From the NCBI GenBank assembly GCA_035541435.1, contig DATKNL010000010.1, positions 94,477-158,476 of the forward strand: a stretch of 64,000 bases of DNA. The letters are read 5' to 3'. How positions within the stretch are numbered: the stretch's first letter is position 1; the number at the start of each line of letters is the position of its first letter. The notes beneath the pieces were generated by a model that was given only the letters and a program-made list of their open reading frames with translations, ran no database searches and was not told the origin of the DNA. Positions 8,584 through 52,529 of this stretch are shown here, piece by piece. The position numbers and the translations under genes are program-made. This DNA comes from Minisyncoccota bacterium. Its GTDB lineage: Bacteria > Patescibacteriota > Minisyncoccia > UBA6257 > 2-01-FULL-56-20.

Positions 8584-9201
8584 TTGCTAGAAATAGGGTA
8601 TTCAATGGACAGAATTTCACGACGGACGAAGGCCCTTGTGGCCTTCATTATTCTTGTAGCGGGCGGGTTTGCGATCACGGTCGTGTGGGGGAGCAGGAAT
8701 CAGGTTCCCGAGGCGTTCACCGACGCCCGCTTGCAGGGCGCCCTCATTTCCCAGACGATCGTAGGCATTTCGAATTCCTCGACCCAGGAGCTCGCCGAGA
8801 TCAACGCGCTTGACCGGAGCGGGAACTACGCCCAGGCGCTTTCCCTTACGACCGACCTCGTGAACCAGAGCCAGCAGCTCCGGGACCAGGGGGTCAAGCT
8901 GTCGAATCAGGTCGGGACGATGACGCAGAGCCTGTCGAGCATCAATTCGTTCTATGCGCAGCAGGCGGCGCTCGAGTCGATCTCGAGCCGGCTCGCGCTC
9001 ATCAACCAGCTCATAACCTATAGCAACGACCTTGACCGGCTGCTCGCCGTGCTTCAGGCGCGTTTTTCGGGAACCTATGAGCCCGCCGGGACCGTGCAGG
9101 GCATCGTTGACCAGATCAACACCGACGTGAACGCGATCAACAACTTCAACACGCAGGCGGAGCAGGCGATGGATCAGTTTGATAAGATAGTGAACAAGTA
9201 G
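8584..9201 (+). CDS. Hypothetical membrane-anchored protein. It has an N-terminal TM helix and a Q/N/S-rich coiled-coil extracytoplasmic region.
   Basis: The TM segment reads ALVAFIILVAGGFAITVVW. The alternative start is MDRISRR at 8605. Confidence 0.5.
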   Translation: MLEIGYSMDRISRRTKALVAFIILVAGGFAITVVWGSRNQVPEAFTDARLQGALISQTIVGISNSSTQELAEINALDRSGNYAQALSLTTDLVNQSQQLRDQGVKLSNQVGTMTQSLSSINSFYAQQAALESISSRLALINQLITYSNDLDRLLAVLQARFSGTYEPAGTVQGIVDQINTDVNAINNFNTQAEQAMDQFDKIVNK

Positions 9202-9272
9202 GGCGCGTAGCTCAACGGCAGAGCAGACGTCTTATACACGTCCGGTTCCTGGTTCGAATCCAGGCGCGCCCA
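9201..9272 (+). tRNA. tRNA-Ile with anticodon UAU, which decodes AUA.
   Basis: It folds as a canonical cloverleaf: acceptor GGGCGCG/CGCGCCC, D-stem GCTC/GAGC, anticodon stem GACGT/ACGTC, loop CTTATAC (U33, anticodon TAT, A37), T-arm CCTGG-TTCGAAT-CCAGG, discriminator A. Confidence 0.8.
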
Positions 9273-9299
9273 CATCGCGTTCCGCACCCCGCGCAATCA

Positions 9300-23940: not shown

Positions 23941-24408
23941 ATGAAAACGGCAGGACGCATCATCCTTTTCGCATCGGTCGTCGCGCTCGCCGTCGTGCCG
24001 CTCTTTGCGCGCGCCGACAACGCGTCAGGCATCCCGTATTGGGCGAACGGGGGATTGCTCTCGTGCACCGGCAACTACGTGAACGGCGCCCATCCCTGCA
24101 CGAGCGTCTGCGACCTCATCCAGACGATCGTGAACGTCATCTATTTCGGCATCACGATCTGCCTCTTCGTGCTCGCGCCGATCTTCTTCACGATCGGCGG
24201 CGTCATGCTCATGGTTTCCGGCGCGAACCCCGAGATGATGAGCCGCGGCAAGGGCATCCTGCTGAACACCGTGATCGGCGTCGTGATCGTGCTCTGCTCC
24301 TATCTCATCGTCTTCACGTTCGTGAACGTGTTCGGCGCCTCGGTGAATGGCCAACCGGCATTCAATTCGACCTTTTCATGCGTGCCGCAGTATCCGACAG
24401 GACAATGA
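23941..24408 (+). CDS. VirB2/TrbC-like pilin family protein, paralog 1.
   Basis: It has a signal peptide, a conserved Cys (SVCDLIQ), and two hydrophobic helices separated by GANPEMMSRGKG. This topology and Cys motif are shared with the other four paralogs and with the VirB2 motif NNICTFILG. Confidence 0.55.
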   Translation: MKTAGRIILFASVVALAVVPLFARADNASGIPYWANGGLLSCTGNYVNGAHPCTSVCDLIQTIVNVIYFGITICLFVLAPIFFTIGGVMLMVSGANPEMMSRGKGILLNTVIGVVIVLCSYLIVFTFVNVFGASVNGQPAFNSTFSCVPQYPTGQ

Positions 24409-24409
24409 G

Positions 24410-25222
24410 ATGAGGAAGGCCCTGCTCGGCGCGGTCATCGGTGCGGCGGCCCTCGTGCCGTTCGCCGCGCTTGCGCAGACGCCGGGCCCGACGCCCATCT
24501 CGCTCTCGTTTCCCGGACAGTATATCGTGACGACGAGCACGCCGCCGGGCTATCTCATTTCGAACTTCTATCACTTCATGATCCTGGCGGGCGCGCTCAT
24601 CGCGCTCGGCGCGATCGTCTATGGCGGCATCAAATATGTCATTTCAGCCGGCAATCCGTCCGGGCAGAGCGACGCGAAAGAGCGGCTTGCCGACGCGTTT
24701 CTCGGGCTTACGCTCCTTGTCTGCGCCTATCTCGTGCTCTACACGATCAACCCAAACCTTGTCGAACTCGGCCTGCCGAACCTGAGTCCGATCAGCGTCG
24801 CGACGCCGCCGCAGACGGGCGGCGGCACGCCCTATGCGCCCGGAACGCCGACCGGAGTCGGGTGCGCCGGCGGGCAGTGCAGCACGCTGCCGAACTGCAC
24901 GCCGTCCGCGCGCGTGAACTGCGGCGGCGCCGCGGAGATGGTGTCGGCCATGCAGTGCATTCAGGCGAAGGACCCGAACTTCTCGGTTTCGGAAGGGTAT
25001 CCGCCGACGGGCGCCCATCAATCGAAATGCCATAGCAACGGCTGCTGCATCGACACGGTCGTTCCGGGATCGAGTTGCGCGGCGGTGAACGCGCTCATTC
25101 AGGCGGCGCAATCATGCGGGGCAAGCGTCGCGAACGAATACACGAACTGCAACGGAACGTCCTATGCGCACACGACGGGCGGCAACGTCCATATCAACGC
25201 GCCGCATATCAACGGATGCTGA
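24410..25222 (+). CDS. VirB2/TrbC-like pilin family protein, paralog 2, with a Cys-rich C-terminal extension.
   Basis: It has the signal peptide MRKALLGAVIGAAALVPFAALA and a two-helix core with AGNPSGQSDAKER. A roughly 130-aa tail follows, carrying at least 14 Cys (GCAGGQCSTLPNCTPS...NGCCID...). Confidence 0.55.
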   Translation: MRKALLGAVIGAAALVPFAALAQTPGPTPISLSFPGQYIVTTSTPPGYLISNFYHFMILAGALIALGAIVYGGIKYVISAGNPSGQSDAKERLADAFLGLTLLVCAYLVLYTINPNLVELGLPNLSPISVATPPQTGGGTPYAPGTPTGVGCAGGQCSTLPNCTPSARVNCGGAAEMVSAMQCIQAKDPNFSVSEGYPPTGAHQSKCHSNGCCIDTVVPGSSCAAVNALIQAAQSCGASVANEYTNCNGTSYAHTTGGNVHINAPHINGC

Positions 25223-25232
25223 TTCGAACACC

Positions 25233-25751
25233 ATGAGATCCCGCATCGTCACCATCATCATCGGCGTCATCGTGATCATCGGTTTTGCGATCTATCTGAT
25301 CTTCGGGCGGAGCGGCGGAACGGCCGGATCGGGGACCGGTGCGGGCGTCGGATCTTCGGGGACCGTCGATGGCACGCCCGTCACGGTGAGTCAGGCCTAT
25401 CCGGACGCCCCGACGACCGATCGGATTTCGATCGGGACCGCGGCCGGCATCGTCCAGGTCGCCAATTTCTATGAGGCAAGCGGGACGACCGTGGGCGACG
25501 ACGGCGTGCTCGTCATCAGCCGCGGCGCGGGATATTGGATCACCTATGACCCGTCGGACAGCAGCTTCTGGGTCGCGGTTTCGGGGACGCCGTTCGAGTC
25601 GGTCCGCCAGGCGGCCGAAGCCGACTTTCTCGCCGCGCTCGGCGTGAGCCGGGGCGATGCGTGCAAGCTTGCCGTTTCGGTCGGCGCGCCCTATGCTGCA
25701 GGGAGCGCCCTCAACGGCCAATCCTTCCCCCTGAGCTTCTGCCCGCACTAG
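25233..25751 (+). CDS. Hypothetical membrane-anchored Gly/Ser/Thr-rich protein.
   Basis: It has the N-terminal TM IVTIIIGVIVIIGFAIYLIF and then a soluble domain. It is embedded within the pilin-like array. Confidence 0.45.
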   Translation: MRSRIVTIIIGVIVIIGFAIYLIFGRSGGTAGSGTGAGVGSSGTVDGTPVTVSQAYPDAPTTDRISIGTAAGIVQVANFYEASGTTVGDDGVLVISRGAGYWITYDPSDSSFWVAVSGTPFESVRQAAEADFLAALGVSRGDACKLAVSVGAPYAAGSALNGQSFPLSFCPH

Positions 25752-25764
25752 CCGATAGTTTATA

Positions 25765-26121
25765 ATGAAAGGAATGCAACCCCTGCGGAAATTCGCCTCG
25801 AACGCCCTTGCAGCAGCCGCGCTTTTCGCGGCGGCGGCGAACATCGCCGTGGCCCAGTCCATCACGCTGCCGAACCCGATCGGCACGACGAGCTGGGCGG
25901 ATGTTGCCGGCAAGATCGTCAACGTCATCTTCGTCGATATCGCCATTCCGTTGTGCACCATCATGGCTCTCGTTGGCGGGTTCCAGCTCATGACATCGGC
26001 CGGCGAGCCTGAAAAGGCATCCCGCGGAAGAAAGACACTCTTATATGCCGCCCTGGGGTTCGGCGTCGTGCTGTGCGCCACCGGAATCGCAAGTCTGCTT
26101 CAGAACCTCCTGACTCCCTAA
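25765..26121 (+). CDS. VirB2/TrbC-like pilin family protein, paralog 3.
   Basis: It has a signal peptide, the motif PLCTIMALVGGFQLMTSAGEPEKASRGRKTLLYAALGFGVVL, and a two-helix hairpin. Confidence 0.55.
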   Translation: MKGMQPLRKFASNALAAAALFAAAANIAVAQSITLPNPIGTTSWADVAGKIVNVIFVDIAIPLCTIMALVGGFQLMTSAGEPEKASRGRKTLLYAALGFGVVLCATGIASLLQNLLTP

Positions 26122-26142
26122 AGTCGAACAATCAAAATAACC

Positions 26143-26547
26143 ATGAAAAAAATATCTTTGTCATTGAAGCTCCTCGGATCGTTCGTTGCTGGTTTGCAAG
26201 GATTTGCGGTTGTCGCACATGCTGCTCAATTCGACTCCAATTCCCAGGTGCAGGCTCCCATACAGAACGAAAGCAATCTCCAGCAGTTGTTTTGCAATAT
26301 CATCAGCTGGTTCTTTTGGATTATCATCGTGATCTCGGTCATCATGGTCCTTATGGCGGCGTTCACCTATGTGACGGCCCGGGGCGACGAAGAGAAGACG
26401 ACGCGCGCGAGAAGGACGATCACCTATGCCGCCATTGGCGTTGCGGTTGCGTTTATCGCGGCCGGATTCCCATCCGTCGTAGCAAGCGTCTTCCCGAACA
26501 TGTCTTCCGTGTCACCTGTCAGCCTGACAAAGGTCTGCGCTTTCTAG
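26143..26547 (+). CDS. VirB2/TrbC-like pilin family protein, paralog 4.
   Basis: It has a signal peptide and the motif QLFCNIISWFFWIIIVISVIMVLMAAFTYVTARGDEEKTTRARRTITYAAIGVAVAF. Confidence 0.55.
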   Translation: MKKISLSLKLLGSFVAGLQGFAVVAHAAQFDSNSQVQAPIQNESNLQQLFCNIISWFFWIIIVISVIMVLMAAFTYVTARGDEEKTTRARRTITYAAIGVAVAFIAAGFPSVVASVFPNMSSVSPVSLTKVCAF

Positions 26548-26610
26548 AAAAGGGAATGATGTGCTACACTGACTAAGTACCCAGGAAAGGTCGAATATTC
26601 CTCAAATTCC

Positions 26611-27003
26611 ATGAAGAACGTTATTGGTTTTGCGAAGACCTACGGCCCGGCGATCACGGCGTTCGTGCTCCCGGCGCTTGCGTTCGCTCAACCCGTCGCC
26701 GTTCCTCCGGGTTCCGGCGGAAACACCGTCCCGGGAACGAGCATCACGAGCCTGCAGAGCGTCCTCAACCTGCTCTGCAACATCTTCGGATGGGCCTTCT
26801 GGTTCCTGATCGTCCTTGCCGTCATTTTCGTCATCGTCGCCGCGTTCCGCTATCTCATGGCGGGTGGCAATCCTGAAAATGTCGGAAAGGCCGGCAGCAC
26901 GCTGCTTTATGCGGCGGTTGCGATTGGCGTCGCACTCCTCGCGCGCGCTGTTCCGCTTGTCGTCGGCAGCTTCCTCGGCGCCGGACAGGTGACGTCCTGC
27001 TAG
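26611..27003 (+). CDS. VirB2/TrbC-like pilin family protein, paralog 5.
   Basis: It has a signal peptide and the motif NLLCNIFGWAFWFLIVLAVIFVIVAAFRYLMAGGNPENVGKAGSTLLYAAVAIGVAL. Confidence 0.55.
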   Translation: MKNVIGFAKTYGPAITAFVLPALAFAQPVAVPPGSGGNTVPGTSITSLQSVLNLLCNIFGWAFWFLIVLAVIFVIVAAFRYLMAGGNPENVGKAGSTLLYAAVAIGVALLARAVPLVVGSFLGAGQVTSC

Positions 27004-27125
27004 TCCGATCGATTCGTTATGAAAAAGGGCCGTCCTCGCTGGACGGTCCTTTTGGTTTTTGCGCACGGGCAGAAAAAAGGCCGCGTGCATGAAGCGCGCG
27101 GCCAAGTGAACGAAGGGAGGAATGG

Positions 27126-27998
27126 TCACTGGAACATGATTTTTTCCTTTCGCGGATCCTCCGGGAGATAGAAAAATCCCGAGCCGCCTTTGACGGGGAG
27201 TGCCCCATCGGGCCAATGCTGAACGGCTATCGTCATCTGCGAGATGCCGCGCGCACGTGGGTCGATGCTGCACTTGCCGGTGATCTTATAACGAATGTCG
27301 GGATTGACCTTCTGTTGGTTGTTTCCCGAGCTGAACCCTATCGCACATGACATGAACGTAGGGAGCAGATATGAGTTTCCGAGATCATCGACGATCTGTC
27401 CGCCGGCCCCTTCGAACGAGAAAAATTGTCGTTCGCCCGAGGTGTTGGTCAGGTATCCCACGAACGCGACACCGCTTTCGGTCGTTCTCGCAGCTTGCAG
27501 TGTCAGCGTGAAGAAGTCCGTTTTCGTGGTCACAACCGGTCCGTAAGGGGATCTGGTTAGTGCTGCCGCGATTTCGGTGGTCTCGCCTTTTTTCTTGTCG
27601 TCAGTCCGGACTCCTTGTCCGTCTGCCGCCTTGGAAGAGGCGCCATTCACTTGCGCGCGCAGGTTGGAATTCGTCTTGCGCAGGTCGTTGATGGTTCCGT
27701 TTTGTCCGGCGATCACGCGGTCCTTTTCTTCCATCTGCGCCCGCAGGTCGTCGATCTGGTCGGCCAGCTTGTCGCCTTTTTCGTCGGCTGGGGTCTGCTC
27801 CTGGTCCTCTTGCGGATGTGATTCCGCCCGATGAACAAGCGCGGGTTCGTGGATCTTTTCCGCATTCTGTCGGGAGGGCTTGCGTACGTAAGGCCACCCG
27901 AACGATATGACGGCGATGAGGACGATCGCTCCTGCGAGGATCGCCCCCATGATGAGTTTGGGCTTCAGTACCTCGTACCTGAACCTCGCATCAACCAT
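27126..27998 (-). CDS. Hypothetical membrane-anchored protein with a coiled-coil region and a C-terminal globular domain.
   Basis: It has the N-terminal TM LIMGAILAGAIVLIAVISF and a heptad-like stretch DQIDDLRAQMEEKDRVIAGQNGTINDLRKTNSNLRAQV. The track ORF start at 28043 is an alternative. Confidence 0.45.
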   Translation of the reverse strand: MVDARFRYEVLKPKLIMGAILAGAIVLIAVISFGWPYVRKPSRQNAEKIHEPALVHRAESHPQEDQEQTPADEKGDKLADQIDDLRAQMEEKDRVIAGQNGTINDLRKTNSNLRAQVNGASSKAADGQGVRTDDKKKGETTEIAAALTRSPYGPVVTTKTDFFTLTLQAARTTESGVAFVGYLTNTSGERQFFSFEGAGGQIVDDLGNSYLLPTFMSCAIGFSSGNNQQKVNPDIRYKITGKCSIDPRARGISQMTIAVQHWPDGALPVKGGSGFFYLPEDPRKEKIMFQ

Positions 27999-28122
27999 AT
28001 GTTCTTCTCCGATCTCTGTAGAGAGCTGGTAACATATTACCATATAAATAGATAATTGTCAATTGTATTAAAAAAGGCCTTCGGTGGTTGCCGTCGGCCT
28101 TTGTTTTTGCGCATGCCTGAAG

Positions 28123-29076
28123 CTAGCGCTCTGCTTTTGTGGTGGTGGGAGCAAGAATCATGTAGCCGCCCTGCTTGCCTTGGACGAGGAACGCGTCCGG
28201 GCAATGGCCGATGTCCTCGGCGACCTTCGCGTTGCCGTCATCCGCCGTTCGGATCGGTCCGATAAAGCTTTTGTCCGGGCAGGCGATGCTCACCCAGCCG
28301 TCGCTCCTATCGATGACCGCGAATTCGCCTTCCCAGGAAGCATGGTATTCGTTTCTGAATCCATCCTCTTGATAAGCGACCTTCTCTTTCGGTTCCGTAA
28401 GATCATACTGGTTGCGCCCGTCTGCGATCTTCGGGCTGAAGCCGCGAGGAGCGGCGTCGCCGATGAACGTCCAGACGAAGAGAGCGGCAGTTGCGGCAAC
28501 AAGCGGGCCGCTGATCCAGATGTTCCTCATCGTCTTTGTCCACACGATCATCAGGATGACGAAGCCGAGGACGATCGTGTGGAATATCATGGTTGTCCAA
28601 GAGGCGTCTTTCGTCGCATTGAACCCGAAGCCTAGCCAAAGAGCCAGACAGAAGATGATTTCCCCGAGAAGGATGAATCCCCATATGCCGAAAATCCTGC
28701 GAGCCAAGGCCTGAGTCACCAGTGCCGCGGTGCGCAATTTTTTCGGCAGTTCCGCCAGGATTCGGGAATCATCCGAAAACCGCAGGATTGCGATGATTCC
28801 GATGAGGCCGAGGGGTCTGACCTTCAGCCAGATGACCCAGGCGATTACGGCGAATACCGTGATCGTCAACACCGGAACCAGCTTGAAAGCCGCGTCTCGA
28901 TCCAAGCAACGCTCGATCCAGAGGACGGCCACGGGAAGGAAGAAGATGGCGGCGAAGAGGCGTTCCAACCACAGGTTGACCTCTTCGTACCCTTCGTCCC
29001 TCAGGATGTAGTAATGCTCTCGGACGCTCCGTTTGCCCTCCTGAAGAAATGCCATTGGGTCGAAATCTTCGTCCAT
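28123..29076 (-). CDS. Hypothetical polytopic membrane protein (about 6 TM) with a C-terminal soluble Cys-containing domain.
   Basis: Several hydrophobic helices are present. No family was recognised. Confidence 0.45.
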   Translation of the reverse strand: MDEDFDPMAFLQEGKRSVREHYYILRDEGYEEVNLWLERLFAAIFFLPVAVLWIERCLDRDAAFKLVPVLTITVFAVIAWVIWLKVRPLGLIGIIAILRFSDDSRILAELPKKLRTAALVTQALARRIFGIWGFILLGEIIFCLALWLGFGFNATKDASWTTMIFHTIVLGFVILMIVWTKTMRNIWISGPLVAATAALFVWTFIGDAAPRGFSPKIADGRNQYDLTEPKEKVAYQEDGFRNEYHASWEGEFAVIDRSDGWVSIACPDKSFIGPIRTADDGNAKVAEDIGHCPDAFLVQGKQGGYMILAPTTTKAER

Positions 29077-29085
29077 AATCCCTCC

Positions 29086-29760
29086 TTACCTGCTGCGGCT
29101 AAGGCGCCGCGTTTCGAGCATGTCGTTGTGGTTCCGCATCCTGACCGTGAGTCGCGCGAGCGACCTTTTCATTCCTTCGAATTCGCTTTGGGCGCTTTTT
29201 TTCGCCTTTTCGAAATCGATGTGAACCAGGCTCGGATTTGTCGTGCCGTTCTGCGGATGATCGGGTATCTTGCACGCTGCGTGTTCCGCTTCGAGCTGGG
29301 CCTTGATGAACTTGAGCAGCTCGATTCTGACGCAGAACTCCTTTTTGATCTTATCGAGTTCCGCAGCAGGATCGCTTGCTTTCGTGATCCGTACCGCGGC
29401 GGCCGCATAGAAGTCCTTGATCCAGTCGCCATCGGAGGATTCAAGATGCTTCATGACCTCGGTCGTCTGCACGGCCGGTTTGTGTCCCAGTGCCAGCGCG
29501 ACAGCTTTGAGGAAGTCCGTAAAGATTTCCAGGCCGCCAGACAGGATGGGGTTACTTATGTCGTCTGCGGTGCCCTCGATCCTTCCCGAAAGAAGCCCTA
29601 TCGCACGACCGAATAGTCTCGATCGGGTCCAGTGCCCTTCGGGAATGAAGTTGCTGATATATTCAGCAAGCCTGTCGATCTCGGGATCCGCCAAGCCGAG
29701 CAACTCCAACGTCATCGTTCTCCGTCGGGAAAACTTCGGATCGATTTCCGGATTTGCCAT
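29086..29760 (-). CDS. Hypothetical cytoplasmic protein.
   Basis: It is a 224-aa ORF co-directional and tightly spaced with the two downstream membrane genes. No family was recognised. Confidence 0.4.
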   Translation of the reverse strand: MANPEIDPKFSRRRTMTLELLGLADPEIDRLAEYISNFIPEGHWTRSRLFGRAIGLLSGRIEGTADDISNPILSGGLEIFTDFLKAVALALGHKPAVQTTEVMKHLESSDGDWIKDFYAAAAVRITKASDPAAELDKIKKEFCVRIELLKFIKAQLEAEHAACKIPDHPQNGTTNPSLVHIDFEKAKKSAQSEFEGMKRSLARLTVRMRNHNDMLETRRLSRSR

Positions 29761-29855
29761 GATTTATCCCTCCACCATTATCAATGGTCTGGCAATATAA
29801 TATCATTAATTTTTATATTTGTCAAAATCACCGAAACCACTTAGAATGAAGGCGC

Positions 29856-29939
29856 GCTGGGGTGGTGAAATGGCAGACACGCAAGGTTTAGGACCTTGTG
29901 CCGCAAGGCGTGTGGGTTCAAGTCCCACCCCCAGCACCA
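29856..29939 (+). tRNA. tRNA-Leu (UAG), type II, with encoded CCA.
   Basis: It has acceptor GCTGGGG/CCCCAGC, anticodon loop TTTAGGA, a long variable arm TGCCGCAAGGCGT, T-arm GTGGG-TTCAAGT-CCCAC and ACCA. Confidence 0.85.
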
Positions 29940-29943
29940 GAGA

Positions 29944-30044
29944 TTTATTTTCCCCAAGAAAGGGTCGGCTCGTTTTCTGCTGAAAACGGCCTACGCCTCC
30001 GCGCCTTCGCGCGTCCGGCATACCCTTTCTTGGGGAAAATAAAT
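29944..30044 (+). repeat. Structured repeat element, copy A. It has a 23-bp perfect outer stem enclosing the conserved inner hairpin.
   Basis: The outer stem ATTTATTTTCCCCAAGAAAGGGT ... ACCCTTTCTTGGGGAAAATAAAT encloses TCGTTTTCTGCTGAAAAC ... CGCCTTCGCG. It starts 5 nt after the tRNA-Leu CCA. Confidence 0.7.
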
Positions 30045-30139
30045 ACTCTTCTGTTTTGGGTGGGGCTTGTACGAGTGGAGGGGGGTCGGGGAACTCGGCA
30101 CCGCTTTAAATGCCTGCAAAGAAGCGCTAAACTGAATGC

Positions 30140-31231
30140 ATGTCCATCATCGAGGACCGGCAGAAGATCAGACAGGAAGCTGAACGCGCGAAGCGGCAGA
30201 CGGAACAGCGCGGCGAGACGGTCGAGCAGGCGCCTGTTTTCGACCCGACCCTTCAGGAAATCCTGAGCAACCCGGAAGAGAGCCAGCTCTTCGGCTCCTA
30301 TCTTGAGCACGAAAAGAAGGGCGATCTCGGCGCGCGTCTTGCGAAGAACGAGCTTAAGCCCGAGGATCTCGAGGCGCTGGAATCGGACCGGGTGCAGTTC
30401 GTAAAGAGACTCGAGGCCGCAAAACGGATGGAGGGGCATTTTGCCGAAAGCGCGATCCAGAAGCTTGTCGATGCGTCGCCGCGCTTCAGGAAGATCGCAA
30501 ACGTTGTCGGCGTGAAGAACGTCAGCGAGGCATTCACCAAGCACCTCGTGGAGCTGTCGGTCGCGGAACCTCACGAATTCATGCAGATCGAGCGTGCCAT
30601 AACCCGGCTCATCGAGCGTCAGAAACGCGAAGAGCGGCTGCAGAAGGAGATCGTGGAGATCTGCCGAAAATATAAAATACCCAGCGTGCGCGAATATCTC
30701 AAGGCCGTCGACTCCGACGATCCCGAGGCGCTCAAGAAGCTGGTTGCGAAATCGATGGGTCGGCTTGAGCGATTCGTCAAAGGAAGGTCCGGAGAGCTTG
30801 AGGAAGAAGTGAAGGCGGCGAACAAGCGCGCGAAACTCGACAGCCTCGAAGCCTGGGCGAAGGACGATCTTGAGGAGGTGGGACGGCTGCTCAGCATCTC
30901 CCTCACGAACAACGACAGACTTCGGTCGACGTTGGTGTCGTTCTCAAAAAAAGAAGACGTTCTCGCGAAATCTCCCGTAGCGACCTTCAGGGATGTGCGA
31001 ATCGCCGAAGAGGCGTGGGAATCGCTTTCAGAAGAAGAGGTCGGCGAAGCGTGGGAAACCTATAAGAAAGAGCGTCCTGCGATGACCGACGTGAAAAAGG
31101 AAAAGGAAGGGTTCTGGAAGGTGTTTGCGCGAAGGAGCGGCTTCGGTGCAAAGAGCGGATTCTGGAGCGATGTCGCGACCATGACCGGCGCCGCGTCGCT
31201 TGCAGGTCGGTTCGAATCAAAACTTAACTGA
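30140..31231 (+). CDS. Hypothetical highly charged (E/K/R-rich) protein.
   Basis: It is a 363-aa ORF predicted to be helical with no recognisable family. Confidence 0.45.
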   Translation: MSIIEDRQKIRQEAERAKRQTEQRGETVEQAPVFDPTLQEILSNPEESQLFGSYLEHEKKGDLGARLAKNELKPEDLEALESDRVQFVKRLEAAKRMEGHFAESAIQKLVDASPRFRKIANVVGVKNVSEAFTKHLVELSVAEPHEFMQIERAITRLIERQKREERLQKEIVEICRKYKIPSVREYLKAVDSDDPEALKKLVAKSMGRLERFVKGRSGELEEEVKAANKRAKLDSLEAWAKDDLEEVGRLLSISLTNNDRLRSTLVSFSKKEDVLAKSPVATFRDVRIAEEAWESLSEEEVGEAWETYKKERPAMTDVKKEKEGFWKVFARRSGFGAKSGFWSDVATMTGAASLAGRFESKLN

Positions 31232-31239
31232 ACGCATCC

Positions 31240-31521
31240 ATGACGAACGACATCGTTGAAAGACTGCAGGAGGTCGTCGCGGCCGGCGACGAAGCCGCCG
31301 CGCGGGAGTTCGTGATGCAGCACCTTCACGAGTTTTCCGATGAGGACCGCCGCGCGATCATCGTGAGCCTGGCGACCGAAGCGCTATCCCGCGACGCTGA
31401 GGAGATCGACGGCCTGCTTTCGCTGCAGGAAAACGGCGTGAAGACGGTCCATGCGCTCGAGAAGATCCAGGAGAAGATCGACGACAAGCGCCGGCTGCTC
31501 GATATCAAGGAATCGATTTAG
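31240..31521 (+). CDS. Hypothetical small acidic protein.
   Basis: It is a 93-aa ORF lying 9 nt after the previous gene, and is likely co-transcribed with it. Confidence 0.4.
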   Translation: MTNDIVERLQEVVAAGDEAAAREFVMQHLHEFSDEDRRAIIVSLATEALSRDAEEIDGLLSLQENGVKTVHALEKIQEKIDDKRRLLDIKESI

Positions 31522-31540
31522 GATTTGCTGCCGCACCGCG

Positions 31541-32464
31541 TCAGTCCTCCTTGCGCCGCGTGCCGTGGAACGACTTGTGCACGTCCCGCAGCTGCTTGTT
31601 CGTGAGGTGCGTATAGATCTGCGTGGTCGATATGTTCGAGTGGCCGAGCAGCTCCTGCACGGCGCGGATGTCGGCGCCGTTGATCAGGAGGTCGGTCGCG
31701 AAGCTGTGCCGCAGCTGGTGCGCATGGATGCGTTTCGGAATGCCCGCTTCGCGCGCGCGCCGCTCGACGACGCGTTCGACGGCCCGCGTCGTGATCGGGC
31801 CGATGACGTTGCCCATCCGGTCGAGGCTGACGAACAGCTTCTCTTCGGCGTCGGCGCGCCTCGCGAGATATCTCTGCAGCGCATCGCGCGCGGAATCCGA
31901 GATGAAGACGACGCGGAGCTTGTCGCCCTTCCCGCGCACGGTCGCCTCGCCGCGACGGATGTCGATGTAGCGCGAGAGCGAGCAGAGCTCGGCCAGGCGC
32001 AGTCCCGTCGAGAAGAAGAGCTCGAGGATCGCCTTGTCGCGCAGCGACCGCAGGTCGTTGCCCTTCGGGGCCGCAAGCAGCCGCTCGAGGTCGGCATATT
32101 CCAGAACGTCGATCTGCCGGGCCGGCGCCTTGGGCAGCTCGATCTTCTCGGCGGCGAGCGCCTTCACGTTGCGCTTCGCGAGATATTTGAGGAAGTTCCG
32201 AAGCGCGATGACGTAATAGCCCTGCGTCACCTTCTTGAGCTCGCGGCGCGCAAGGGCCTTGCGGAATTCGGTGACGAGCGACTCGGTGATGTCCTTGGCG
32301 GAGCGGATATCGGCGAACGTCAGGAACTCCTTGAGGTAGTGGCGATAGTTCTCGCTCGTCTTCGGCGAGCGATTCTTCTCGACTTCAAGGTAGTTGAGGT
32401 AGTCCTGAAAGAGCTGTTCGATTTCGCTTGATGCCATTCCCTTATTATACGCCATCTGTCGCAC
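31541..32464 (-). CDS. xerD: Tyrosine site-specific recombinase, XerC/XerD-like.
   Basis: It has an N-terminal SAM-like domain (LSENYRHYLKEFL-type) and a C-terminal catalytic domain with R...HQLRHSFATDLLINGADIRAVQELLGHSNISTTQIYTHL (R-H-R-Y). Confidence 0.8.
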   Translation of the reverse strand: MRQMAYNKGMASSEIEQLFQDYLNYLEVEKNRSPKTSENYRHYLKEFLTFADIRSAKDITESLVTEFRKALARRELKKVTQGYYVIALRNFLKYLAKRNVKALAAEKIELPKAPARQIDVLEYADLERLLAAPKGNDLRSLRDKAILELFFSTGLRLAELCSLSRYIDIRRGEATVRGKGDKLRVVFISDSARDALQRYLARRADAEEKLFVSLDRMGNVIGPITTRAVERVVERRAREAGIPKRIHAHQLRHSFATDLLINGADIRAVQELLGHSNISTTQIYTHLTNKQLRDVHKSFHGTRRKED

Positions 32465-49649: not shown

Positions 49650-51173
49650 TCAGAGGAACCCAGGGAAGAAGTCGGTTTCGATCTGCGCGAGCGGGATGCC
49701 GAGCTCCCGGAGTGTCTTCTTGAATCCCGAGACCATCGCTTCGGTTCCTGAAATGTAAAAGATGCGCTCGCGGTAGTCGGGGACCGTGCGGCGGATGAGG
49801 TCGGCGTCGATGCGCCCCTTCACGCCGTTGTGCGCGGGCGCCGGCTCTCCCTCACCCGTGACGACATAGACCGTGCGCAGGCCCCAGCCCGTTTCGGCCT
49901 CGTCGAAGATCTCTTTATAGGAGATGTCGGCGTTCGTGCGGTTCGAATAGAGGAGGACGGCGTCGCGCCGGCCCCCGGAATCGGAGATATGCTTCACCAT
50001 GCTTCGGAACGGGGTGATGCCGATGCCTCCGGCGACGAAGACGAGTTTTTTCGACAGGTCGTCCGGCAGGGTGAAGTCCCCGGCGAGCTGTCCCGCAAAG
50101 ATCGGGTCGCCGGGCTTCATGGCGAGCATGCGTTTCTTGAAACTGCTCGAATTGTCATAGAACCGGACACCGAGGCGCACGTTCGGTTCGGTGGGCGACG
50201 ACGCGATGGTGAAATAGCGGCGGTTGCCGCGCGAATCGATGAGCTCGTGCGCGAGCGTCCATTCGAGATATTGTCCCGGGCGGAACGAAAGCCCCTTGAC
50301 CGGCTCGAACGAGAAATCATAGATGTCGGCGCTTACGGCCTTCTTTTCGCGTAGCACGAAGCGATATTTTCGCTTGGGGCTCACGAGATAGGCGAAGACG
50401 TTGCCGACGAGGAGCGCAAGTTCGGGAATCGAATAGACCGGGCCGATGTGGATATAGGGAGAATAGAGCGCGCCCACGAGCACGGCATAGGCGATGCGGA
50501 GGGAGCGCGTTGGCGGCGTTGTGAGCGGCTCGGTGAGCATGATGAACGCGAAGAAGAAGAGGGGCGTGTGAAGGGCGAGGCGTTCAAGCGTGCCTGCGGG
50601 ATCGAAGAGGGGGCTGAGCGCGATGCAGCTTATGGCCGCCGCGCCCAGGAACGGCAGGACGAGGTCGAACCGCTGGATCTTGCGGACGACGAGGAGCCCG
50701 CCCACGAGGACGAACGGGAGCATGGGCAGGTTGCCGCCGACCCACCAGCTCGCATAGTCACCGAGCGCGAATGCCGTGACGACGACCGCGAGCGCCGCCG
50801 GATTGAAGACGTGCTTCTTCCCGATGGCGAGGAGGTATTTCGAAGCCATCCCGACGACGGCTGCGGCGGCGAGGAACGTGACGCCCGCCAGGCTGTTGGG
50901 CGATGCCGGCGGAACGATGAGGGCGAGGATGAGCGCCGTGATATAGGTCGATTCGTGGTTCGGATGCGCGTCGAAGATCTTTGCGAAAAGCGCGTTCGCA
51001 AGCCATGAAAGCACGATGAGGAAGAGCGTCGAGAAGACGAGCGCCGTCGGATCCACCGGGACCCAATGGACGGCCCCGAAGATGGCGCCCAGCGCGACGA
51101 AGGCAATGAGGACATACAGCACGAGGCGGTACATCGTGATCCTGTTGAGCAGCCGGTCTATGAAGTCAATCAT
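49650..51173 (-). CDS. Membrane oxidoreductase with an N-terminal RnfD/NqrB-like polytopic domain fused to an FNR-type FAD/NAD(P)-binding reductase domain.
   Basis: The N-terminal helices carry VFNPAALAV (the RnfD/NqrB FNPA motif). The C-terminus has RYFTIASSP (RxYS FAD-binding) and GGIGITPF (NAD-binding). Confidence 0.65.
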   Translation of the reverse strand: MIDFIDRLLNRITMYRLVLYVLIAFVALGAIFGAVHWVPVDPTALVFSTLFLIVLSWLANALFAKIFDAHPNHESTYITALILALIVPPASPNSLAGVTFLAAAAVVGMASKYLLAIGKKHVFNPAALAVVVTAFALGDYASWWVGGNLPMLPFVLVGGLLVVRKIQRFDLVLPFLGAAAISCIALSPLFDPAGTLERLALHTPLFFFAFIMLTEPLTTPPTRSLRIAYAVLVGALYSPYIHIGPVYSIPELALLVGNVFAYLVSPKRKYRFVLREKKAVSADIYDFSFEPVKGLSFRPGQYLEWTLAHELIDSRGNRRYFTIASSPTEPNVRLGVRFYDNSSSFKKRMLAMKPGDPIFAGQLAGDFTLPDDLSKKLVFVAGGIGITPFRSMVKHISDSGGRRDAVLLYSNRTNADISYKEIFDEAETGWGLRTVYVVTGEGEPAPAHNGVKGRIDADLIRRTVPDYRERIFYISGTEAMVSGFKKTLRELGIPLAQIETDFFPGFL

Positions 51174-51197
51174 CGTTTAAGGAATTTTTAATGAATG

Positions 51198-51941
51198 CTA
51201 CGCGGCCGCGAACCGTTCGAACCCGCTCGTCATGACGGCCTGCCGGTCGTTCCGGATCATGTAGGTTTCGAATCCGGGCAGCGATTCGACGAACGCTGCG
51301 GCATCGGTGCCCATGGCAAACGCCGCCGTCGCGATCCGGTCGGCCTCATAGACGTTCGGGCCGATGACTGTGAGGCTTGCGATGTCCTCGGCGGGTTTTC
51401 GCGTCAGGGGATTATAGATGTGCGGGCCCCTGACATAGGTACCCGAGGTCGCGACGCCTTCGCCGGTCACCTTCACTATTTTGACATGTTCATCCTGGTT
51501 CCAGGGATTCTTGATGCCGACGCTCCACGATTCGCCTTCGGCATTCCGGCCGTGGGGCTGGATGTCGCCCCCGGCGTCGACATAGAAATCTGCAAATCCG
51601 GCCTTGAGGATGAGCTGGGCCGCGTTCCATATGGACCAGCCTTTCACGAGTCCCGAGGGATCGAGCCTGCCTTCGGGCGTGCGGATGTCGAAGAATCCCC
51701 GTGTGAGCTGCTTCGTCTCTTCGGAAAGCATGAGCACGAGCCGCATCTCGGGGCTCGCATCTTCGGGCGCGAGGCGTCCGCTGTTGATCGCGCTGATCTC
51801 GCTCGTCTCTTTATAGGTGCTGAATGTCTCGTCGATATGCGTGAAATAATCGAACACGCGGTCGAAGATTTTTTCGCCCGCGCGGGGATCGGCGATTTCG
51901 AGTGAGATGGGCATGCCCATGAGGAATCGTGTCTGTTTCAT
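51198..51941 (-). CDS. apbE: FAD:protein FMN transferase (ApbE family).
   Basis: The sequence reads FLMGMPISLEIAD...YVDAGGDI...VATSGTY, the ApbE signature. Confidence 0.8.
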   Translation of the reverse strand: MKQTRFLMGMPISLEIADPRAGEKIFDRVFDYFTHIDETFSTYKETSEISAINSGRLAPEDASPEMRLVLMLSEETKQLTRGFFDIRTPEGRLDPSGLVKGWSIWNAAQLILKAGFADFYVDAGGDIQPHGRNAEGESWSVGIKNPWNQDEHVKIVKVTGEGVATSGTYVRGPHIYNPLTRKPAEDIASLTVIGPNVYEADRIATAAFAMGTDAAAFVESLPGFETYMIRNDRQAVMTSGFERFAAA

Positions 51942-51983
51942 GGGTGGGATCGCTCACGGCTCGCGCCGGCCGGCGCCGATAGG

Positions 51984-52529
51984 TCAGACTTTCGCCTGGG
52001 CGAGCGCCGAAGCGAGCGACTGCTGGAACGCCTGACTGTCCTGGGTTGCGCCCGAGACGATGTCGACCGTCGCGCTCTGGGCGGTGATGGCTTCCTGCTT
52101 GAGCTGCGGCAGCGCTTCGCGTGAAACTTCGGCCGTATGCCCGGGGTCGTTCGGATATTGCAGGAACTTCACGTCGGTCAGCTTGCCGCCGCTTATGACG
52201 GCCGAGACCTGGATGGTTCCATAGAACGCGTCGGCAGCCGTTCCGGTGTATGTTCCATTCTTATAGAGGCTGGTCGTTCCGGAGCCTGAGCCCGATCCAG
52301 ACCCGGTGCCGCCGGTGCCGGTGCCAGTGCCGCTTCCGCTACCGGTCCCCGTTGTTCCGGTTCCCGATGACGTTGCACCGCTGCCGCTGCCGGAAGGCGT
52401 CGGCGTGCTTGAGGGCTGACCGCCGCCGGTTGTCGCGACGTTGCTATTCCGTTGCGATGAGAAGATGGCATATCCCGCAATGACGACGACGGCGATGATG
52501 GCCAGAACGTATTTCCAGGCGTTTTTCAT
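51984..52529 (-). CDS. Membrane-anchored FMN-binding domain protein with a flavinylation motif.
   Basis: It has an N-terminal TM, a Gly/Ser/Thr-rich linker and an FMN_bind-like domain ending in DIVSGATQDSQAF. This is the D-x-x-[ST]-G-A-T motif recognised by ApbE. Confidence 0.7.
   Translation of the reverse strand: MKNAWKYVLAIIAVVVIAGYAIFSSQRNSNVATTGGGQPSSTPTPSGSGSGATSSGTGTTGTGSGSGTGTGTGGTGSGSGSGSGTTSLYKNGTYTGTAADAFYGTIQVSAVISGGKLTDVKFLQYPNDPGHTAEVSREALPQLKQEAITAQSATVDIVSGATQDSQAFQQSLASALAQAKV

Follow-up and report, generated by a model that had tools for sequence, protein, structure and literature searches.

Within a window of 64,000 nucleotides from a Minisyncoccota bacterium (GenBank assembly GCA_035541435.1, contig DATKNL010000010.1, positions 94,477 to 158,476 of the forward strand; "the window" denotes this whole stretch throughout), we show that positions 23941-27003 encode five predicted, divergent members of the T4SS_pilin/VirB2 family, named P1 to P5 in gene order. 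The second of them, P2, ends in a domain that has the LAS zinc-peptidase fold (hedgehog N-domain, VanX/VanY, MepA) and that we infer to be a zinc-dependent peptidoglycan peptidase. We regard it as moderately probable that the unit encodes filament subunits of a Patescibacteria type IV secretion system (T4SS) together with a tethered cell-wall hydrolase. The array as such is of an already published kind, and P2 is already annotated as a pilin; what would go beyond the searchable literature is an unannotated LAS family fused to T4SS pilins, the exchange of this domain for SLT_3 in related genomes, and a terminal Cys pair in several of the pilins.

A preliminary description of this stretch had read the five small secreted proteins as VirB2/TrbC-like pilins on the grounds of topology, and had proposed a profile hidden Markov model (HMM) search against PF04956 and related T4SS pilin models. 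That search upholds the assignment: all five paralogs exceeded the gathering cutoff of PF18895 (T4SS_pilin; 26.6 bits), with scores of 31.5-43.9 bits, and P3 alone also exceeded the cutoff of PF04956 (TrbC/VirB2; 27.9 bits), with 30.5 bits, while P1, P2, P4, and P5 gave no PF04956 match at E≤1. Five matches to one family within 3 kb are far beyond chance. P3 is the paralog nearest to classical conjugative pilins, and in NCBIfam it gave a subthreshold match to the Mbov_0395 pilin-like family, known from a mycoplasma integrative and conjugative element (27.1 versus 40 bits). Pairwise BLASTP identities among the paralogs range from 20 to 42%, with E values down to 3e-20. All five share an N-terminal hydrophobic leader with an AxA-type end, followed by two hydrophobic segments of ~25-35 aa that are separated by a short loop of NPE, EPE, or DEE and then K/R. 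Leader and helices were called from hydropathy and from an alignment of the window pilins with those of a related locus, L005 (alignment A2), and a single-sequence AlphaFold2 model of P2, of low confidence, placed helices at residues 46-81 and 87-121. The two-helix hairpin with a short charged loop behind a leader, as first described, was thus recovered in hydropathy, alignment, and model alike. Foldseek matches of the low-confidence full-length P2 model were generic helical hairpins, and the tail had a pLDDT below 50 in that model.

P2 begins with a signal peptide and the pilin hairpin (~residues 46-121), to which a Pro/Gly/Thr linker joins the LAS-type domain that ends the protein. This tail of ~125 aa has 12 Cys beyond residue 150, confirming the Cys-rich extension seen at first inspection; the accompanying suggestion of a tip or adhesin domain is refined, the tail being recognized as a LAS-fold zinc-peptidase domain by its conserved catalytic residues and fold match. 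Scanned alone against Pfam and NCBIfam, the tail had no useful match (best, Trefoil, E=0.12), none of the Pfam models reaching its cutoff, and a word-indexed homologue search returned one fragment only. An exhaustive phmmer search of 1.84 billion representatives returned 154 proteins at E≤1e-3, in which the domain is nearly always C-terminal within proteins of 250-440 aa. Upstream of the domain, a local HMM of the five pilins in the window recognized a pilin core in 123 of the best 150 family members; those without such a match are mostly fragments, along with several longer proteins with weak PF18895 matches, and one member is a LysM + LAS fusion. We propose that the P2 tail defines a predicted, previously undescribed family of LAS peptidases, comprising at least 154 clusters and almost always fused to a pilin.

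The residues conserved within this family include those expected of a zinc site. The family alignment, of at least 148 sequences, gives the signature C152, C157 ... v-T-E195-a-Y-P198-P199-t-x-x-H203-x-x-x-C-H208-x-N-G211-x-C-x-D215 ... G237 ... N-E243-Y ... T-T-G-x-H/N259-x-H261. Every sequence has H208, D215, and E243; E195, H203, and H261 occur in at least 93% of sequences (H261 in 93%); and P198, P199, and G211 join these six among the invariant or near-invariant positions. Compared with PDB sequences, the family profile matched the N-terminal domains of Sonic, Indian, and Desert hedgehog (best E=1.8e-6, for that of Sonic hedgehog, ShhN), and the alignment pairs conserved family residues with Shh E127, H135, H141, D148, and E177, running the family string TE...H....H..G...D along Shh and placing the family "NEY" opposite Shh "YYES" so that E243 matches the E of Shh "VYYES". 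In Shh, zinc is held by H141, D148, and H183, with E177 as the catalytic base (PMC6027127). The putative zinc ligands of P2 would be H208, D215, and H261, with E243 and H203 as catalytic-site equivalents; the LAS zinc-site motifs H-x(6)-D and H-x-H are both found in the family, the former as invariant H208-x6-D215, and E243 takes the place of the general-base Glu, equivalent to Shh E177.

The fold supports the same assignment. In Foldseek, the top 38 matches were all hedgehog N-domains, so that hedgehog signalling domains are the best solved matches by sequence and by structure alike. Values listed for solved LAS relatives are 8.6 (VanXYg), 8.5 (VanX), 8.4 (VanXYc), 8.2 (LdcB and VanYB), 7.9 (MepA), 7.4 (Streptomyces albus DD-peptidase), and 6.6-6.7 (phage L-Ala-D-Glu endolysins). 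The domain has a central antiparallel sheet with flanking helices and superposes on known LAS members. Because of the profile match to hedgehog N-domains and these Foldseek matches, we assign the P2 tail to the LAS-fold zinc peptidases; a VirB1-type SLT domain it is not. We also considered whether the tail is an orthologue of hedgehog or of the bacterial bacHh proteins, and this was ruled out by an identity of ~12-14%, by the failure to reach any Pfam cutoff, and by the absence of the Ca2+ site. The HH_signal model (PF01085) had no match in P2 and only weak ones in 8 of 56 family members (best E=0.002), and of the residues that define the hedgehog two-Ca2+ site (Shh E90, E91, D96, E127, D130, and D132), the ligands D130 and D132 are replaced by P198 and P199.

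Exact-protein look-ups found the same locus in four further assemblies (L005, L009, L010, and a contig of ERZ1426829), and in at least five genomes the array adjoins gyrA. The shared order is Lactamase_B_3, a small open reading frame (ORF), gyrA, a solute-binding protein gene (SBP), a pilin, a long pilin, the gene of a membrane protein designated H, and three to four pilins, followed by a variable stretch, a tyrosine recombinase gene, rpsO, a NYN-domain gene, and pnp. GyrA is 81-82% identical to its counterparts in L009 and L010, and across the relatives identities are 54-57% for the SBP, 57-68% for P5, 40-56% for the other pilins (40-55% for the P1 orthologues in L005, L009, and L010), and 39-50% for H. 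P5 is the most conserved pilin between genomes and a candidate for the major pilin subunit. The long pilins at the second position in L009 (9095-9985) and L010 (7566-8516) are orthologues of P2 (window 24410-25222), and their pilin parts are 49-53% identical to that of P2. Their tails are unlike the LAS domain and consist of another Cys-rich domain: that of L009 passes Pfam SLT_3 (PF18896, lysozyme-like; 29.6 bits versus a cutoff of 27; motif ES.G...GLFQIN), and that of L010 gives a weaker SLT_3 match. A further locus, L008 (3226-10876), encodes a 983-aa protein that has a pilin domain and ends in a LAS domain, an adjoining 568-aa protein combining T4SS_pilin, Peptidase_M23, and Beta-lactamase2, and an 812-aa protein with three pilin domains. 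Because action on peptidoglycan is common to the domains fused to pilin modules, we favor a wall-cleaving over a purely adhesive role for the P2 tail, and from the comparison the probable role of array position 2 is a VirB1-like one, the cleavage of peptidoglycan.

The preliminary description had also listed a conserved Cys among the shared features of the paralogs. Several of them do have Cys, but these form no single conserved column; instead, alignment A2 shows a pair confined to the P1, P4, and P5 types, consisting of a Cys just upstream of helix 1 and a second at or close to the C terminus (C51 and C132 in P4; C56 and the last residue, C130, in P5). In P1, the extracytoplasmic N-terminal segment is longer and includes three Cys, and there is another Cys at the C terminus; in the P3 type the terminal pair is missing and the Cys sits within helix 1, and P2 is without the supposed conserved residue. 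The matches listed by a profile search with the pilin alignment were all short P5-like pilins, and among 120 cluster representatives drawn from it, 111 have exactly two Cys, at those two sites, while in 115 a Cys is among the three C-terminal residues. Since both positions would be extracytoplasmic given an N-out/C-out hairpin, a disulfide tying the segment before helix 1 to the C terminus is plausible in the P1, P4, and P5 types. The conjugative pilins TrbC and VirB2 undergo head-to-tail cyclization, of which the putative disulfide would be a functional analogue, and some of these pilins may thus be disulfide-closed where classical conjugative pilins are cyclized. An MdbA-like thiol-disulfide oxidoreductase is enriched among genomes of the candidate phyla radiation (CPR) (PMC6744442).

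We propose a mechanism in which the prepilins would be exported by their Sec-type leader, cleaved after AxA, and stored in the membrane as hairpins that have both termini outside (N-out/C-out) and the basic loop on the inner side. Extraction and polymerization would then fall to a VirB4-driven machine whose genes lie elsewhere, with P5 as the main subunit and the other paralogs as variants, and the P1, P4, and P5 types would be closed by a disulfide. P2, whether a minor subunit of the pilus or a partner anchored in the membrane, would present its Zn-dependent peptidase on the outer side of the membrane, where it could cut peptidoglycan stem peptides and allow the filament to pass the cell's own wall, the host wall, or both. 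P2 would in this way supply a VirB1-type function, and the literature describes VirB1 as usually missing where Patescibacteria have VirB2 homologues. Incorporation of P2 into the filament is speculative, and it is doubtful that P2-type proteins are true T4SS filament subunits forming an enzymatically armed pilus, with LAS or SLT_3 on its outward C-terminal end, that digests the host wall. If this were true, these epibionts would use the filament as the organelle for breaching their hosts, and which enzyme it bears would help to determine host range.

Several observations weigh against filament subunits with a tethered hydrolase. The profile of alignment A2 found nothing relevant at E≤10 to solved VirB2, TraA, or TrbC pilins among PDB sequences, and we know of no conjugative pilin with a 125-aa globular domain. 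The first position of H-x-H, His in 71% of the family and Asn in 20%, is taken by Asn (N259) in P2 and its closest relatives, a caveat on catalysis, and in hedgehog the same fold can serve mainly as a binding module. As the preliminary description had noted for VirB4, VirD4, and VirB6, the larger ORFs of the window encode none of these, nor VirB3 or VirB8, and the same holds for 7 kb further upstream; likewise, VirB4, VirB6, VirB3, and VirD4 are absent within 10 kb of the orthologous arrays. Since no T4SS gene lies near the array or its orthologues, the link to a T4SS is one of homology. Lastly, in another lineage (L006, 5357-11077; L007; L011, 5285-11308; L012), pilin-LAS genes lie within a pyruvate:ferredoxin oxidoreductase (POR) operon in the order DsbA, POR gamma, (delta), POR alpha, a pilin-like gene (333-351 aa), POR beta, and pilin-LAS (358-435 aa), with overlapping starts, a setting not predicted for a dedicated T4SS part.

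Such a setting would suit a pilin domain that is only a two-helix membrane anchor, in a unit that would comprise peptidoglycan hydrolases tethered to the membrane along with small membrane proteins, would remodel the cell's own envelope during wall growth, division, or turnover, and would make neither filament nor T4SS. The missing sequence match to solved pili and the neighborhood of all five syntenic arrays (gyrA, S15, PNPase, and recA, with no T4SS gene near) speak for it as well, as does the variety of wall enzymes fused to T4SS_pilin, namely, LAS, SLT_3, Peptidase_M23, and Beta-lactamase2/S11-like domains. We nonetheless consider such a module unlikely, as four of the five paralogs are enzyme-free, pilin-sized processed hairpins, P3 passes the TrbC/VirB2 model, and the terminal Cys staple and the diversification of the paralogs fit exposed filament subunits better than anchors. 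Moreover, the homologous array of Southlakia epibionticum lies inside a T4SS cluster and is essential, and a pilin gene was found near virB4 in 1,135 of the 1,948 Patescibacteria assemblies that have both VirB2-like pilins and VirB4 (PMC12102498).

A different possibility concerns the tail itself, which might be a noncatalytic recognition module whose zinc cleft binds a wall peptide or glycan of the host, so that P2 would act as an adhesin or tip pilin and determine specificity for the host. The substitution at N259, the position of hedgehog signalling domains at the top of the solved matches, the heavy disulfide bonding predicted from the 12 Cys, as in exposed binding domains, and the divergence of the paralogs, as expected of host-range variation, are all compatible with it. 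Selection for binding alone, however, would leave no need for (near-)invariance, throughout the family alignment, of all three Zn ligands together with the Glu equivalent to E177 and the His equivalent to H135; sister genomes have a lysozyme-like SLT_3 domain at the orthologous position; related pilin fusions bear M23 and beta-lactamase-type domains, giving peptidoglycan cleavage rather than one ligand as the common denominator; and the hedgehog Ca2+-site residues D130 and D132 are Pro-Pro in the family. We thus rate an adhesin as somewhat less probable still than a mere anchor. Very improbable, in our estimate, is that the array is cargo of a mobile element, the remnant of a conjugative element that lost its ATPase genes and is decaying or nonfunctional. 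Directly downstream there is indeed a variable stretch of lower G+C content that contains orphan genes, a tRNA-Leu gene, and the gene of a tyrosine recombinase, and in L009 a resolvase gene and a Phage_rep_O gene lie downstream, but the G+C content and codon pattern of the array equal those of its housekeeping neighbors, its reading frames are all intact, and in five genomes whose GyrA is only ~81-82% identical it is always flanked by gyrA-SBP on one side and the variable stretch on the other. The recombinase gene, in turn, neighbors rpsO in each of these genomes, in the manner of a resident Xer-type gene.

The gene layout agrees with the preliminary description, which had placed five pilin-like genes head to tail behind an SBP gene with one membrane-anchored protein among them: ORF coordinates and Pfam matches confirm this order, and its view of an episymbiont-type genome is in keeping with the NCBI taxon label of the window proteins, a metagenome-assembled genome of Candidatus Paceibacterota (Patescibacteria/CPR). 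Six closely spaced plus-strand genes fill positions 23941-27003, with identical public gene calls, and in a window of ~60% G+C they have the codon-position pattern of genuine genes, rich in G+C at the third position. The SBP stop codon lies 1 nt ahead of the P1 start, gaps from SBP to P5 are 1-63 nt, and no terminator-like site was found on the plus strand between SBP and P5. Owing to these short gaps and to the sole terminator-like hairpin after P5, the genes SBP, P1, P2, H, P3, P4, and P5 look like a single chromosomal transcription unit (Table 1).

Table 1. Features of the predicted pilin unit, with positions in the window
Feature	Position	Strand	Evidence or remark
SBP_bac_1 protein, membrane-anchored, 444 aa	22605..23939	+	Pfam SBP_bac_1, E 3.2e-28; first gene of the unit
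P1, VirB2-like pilin paralog, 155 aa	23941..24408	+	PF18895, 32.1 bits
P2, pilin-enzyme fusion, 270 aa	24410..25222	+	PF18895, 31.5 bits; NCBI HVN26584.1 'pilin'
P2 LAS (hedgehog-N / M15-like) zinc-peptidase domain, residues 146-270	24845..25219	+	Profile and fold matches
H, array-specific single-pass membrane protein, 172 aa	25233..25751	+	16 homologues; alignment A4
P3, VirB2/TrbC-like pilin paralog, 118 aa	25765..26121	+	PF18895, 43.9 bits; PF04956, 30.5 bits
P4, pilin paralog, 134 aa	26143..26547	+	PF18895, 36.9 bits; 42% identical to P5
P5, pilin paralog, 130 aa	26611..27003	+	PF18895, 36.6 bits
Bidirectional intrinsic-terminator-like hairpin, 13-bp stem then T-run	27023..27053	.	Closes the unit 3' of P5

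Two nonpilin proteins accompany the array. An SBP_bac_1 gene precedes it in all five syntenic genomes (the window, L005, L009, L010, and the ERZ1426829 contig), and there is no ABC permease gene nearby; a scan of a library of genome contigs with the SBP returned only a Streptomyces match, of 29% identity. This orphan protein with its transmembrane anchor may belong functionally to the array unit. H consists of an N-terminal transmembrane helix, a Gly/Ser/Thr linker, and an extracytoplasmic domain of ~110 aa, and has the invariant motif DACKL...PLSFC (alignment A4). It had no Pfam match and no meaningful match when its profile was compared with PDB sequences. Its homologues are all of ~165-215 aa, come from Paceibacterota-type assemblies, and always lie within the array, at the same position in L005, L009, L010, and the ERZ1426829 contig.

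The remainder of the window encodes housekeeping functions (NusA, a TyrS-type synthetase, FtsH, SHMT, GyrA, PNPase, RecA, FtsK, ClpB, GyrB, NusG, MscL, and peptidases). Downstream of the array, positions 27126-32464 are of lower G+C content (0.54-0.56) and contain three minus-strand orphan genes, a tRNA-Leu (29856-29939), and a 363-aa orphan, ending with an Xer-type tyrosine recombinase (31541-32464, minus strand). The genes between array and recombinase differ in every relative, those of L009 including the resolvase and the Phage_rep_O gene. A multipass membrane protein in this region (28123-29076, minus strand) was considered as a VirB6 candidate and rejected, having no supporting Pfam match and not being kept downstream of the relatives' arrays. 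Elsewhere, positions 49650-52529 (minus strand) encode a 507-aa fusion of an RnfD/NQR-like membrane domain with an NAD-binding oxidoreductase domain, beside ApbE and an FMN_bind protein; the group is a flavin-based membrane redox module, and this lineage is commonly said to have no respiratory chain. At 9201-9273 (plus strand) lies a tRNA-Ile with anticodon TAT, which reads AUA directly and is uncommon in bacteria. The contig is also available in ENA as k141_595828, at 158,720 bp versus 160,015 bp for the NCBI copy; given these unequal sizes and an offset shift of 53 nt around window ~13.8-15.8 kb, the two assemblies differ by small indels.

A large part of bacterial diversity falls within the Patescibacteria, which rely on contact with host cells. 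In the single species tested, neither the T4SS, a system that would have to cross two cell walls, nor its pilin array is dispensable. A pilin-fused LAS or SLT_3 domain at a conserved array position would be a testable answer to where the missing VirB1 function lies, and an enzyme-bearing pilin is a candidate for the step that breaches the host wall. Quinonero-Coronel et al. ran PF04956 and PF18895 against 3,035 Patescibacteria genomes, the source of the virB4 counts given above, and reported 441 arrays of 2-11 pilins, either in tandem or split by one nonpilin gene, with a mean identity of 25% and a maximum of 54% (PMC12102498). A pilin series within the S. epibionticum T4SS cluster was shown by Wang et al. 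to be essential for epibiotic growth (PMC10633639), as restated in a 2025 review (PMC12857230). With five pilins, one intervening gene, identities of 20-42%, and a Candidatus Paceibacterota genome, the window array fits the published definition. Like the S. epibionticum ML1 array (SEML1_0006-0019) and the 441 others, it comprises tandem, divergent PF18895/PF04956 pilins with an occasional nonpilin gene between them, in monoderm CPR genomes, in which relaxase and coupling proteins are usually missing. It differs in following gyrA and an SBP gene, outside any T4SS cluster and with no virB4 in the window or the 7 kb upstream, in having one pilin fused to a LAS domain, and in holding the conserved H protein. 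We found no mention of a pilin-LAS fusion or of the H protein in such arrays in the searchable literature, nor a description there of the LAS-pilin family, of a LAS/SLT_3 exchange at a conserved array position, or of the terminal Cys pair.

Among conjugative pilins, TrbC of RP4 and VirB2, the Agrobacterium T-pilin, share with the window pilins a long leader, two hydrophobic helices, and a short basic loop. Their ends are joined by a peptide bond, whereas a putative disulfide would join them here; in addition, four of the five window paralogs fall below the PF04956 cutoff, none has a sequence match to solved pilins, nothing points to cyclization and a TraF-like cyclase was not seen, the organism is monoderm, and one paralog bears a globular enzyme domain. 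The bacHh DD-peptidases resemble P2 in having a hedgehog-N-like Zn domain at the C terminus of a membrane-anchored bacterial protein, presumed to be a wall peptidase, but they share >50% identity with ShhN and have the full set of Ca2+ ligands (PMC6027127), unlike the P2 family with ~12-14% identity, no Ca2+ site, and another anchor. On account of these differences, we place the P2 family on a branch separate from bacHh. From the solved members of the LAS peptidases at large (hedgehog-N, VanX/VanY/LdcB of M15B/D, MepA of M74, the S. albus DD-peptidase of M15A, and phage endolysins of M15C), the P2 tail stands apart in an identity of only 9-20%, and it differs from known LAS peptidases in an insertion of ~12 residues between the Glu and H-x-H, in up to six disulfides, and in its fusion to a T4SS pilin.

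The peptidoglycan hydrolases associated with T4SSs are VirB1 (SLT) and, in monoderm systems, PrgK, TraG(pIP501), and TcpG (SLT + CHAP). In sequence the P2 tail is unrelated to SLT and CHAP domains, it would be a peptidase and not a glycosidase, and its anchor is a pilin hairpin in place of a single transmembrane helix or signal peptide. The job that we propose for it would nevertheless be the same as that of VirB1, PrgK, TraG, and TcpG, a local opening of the wall for a T4SS, and at the position of P2 the sister genomes carry an SLT_3 domain.

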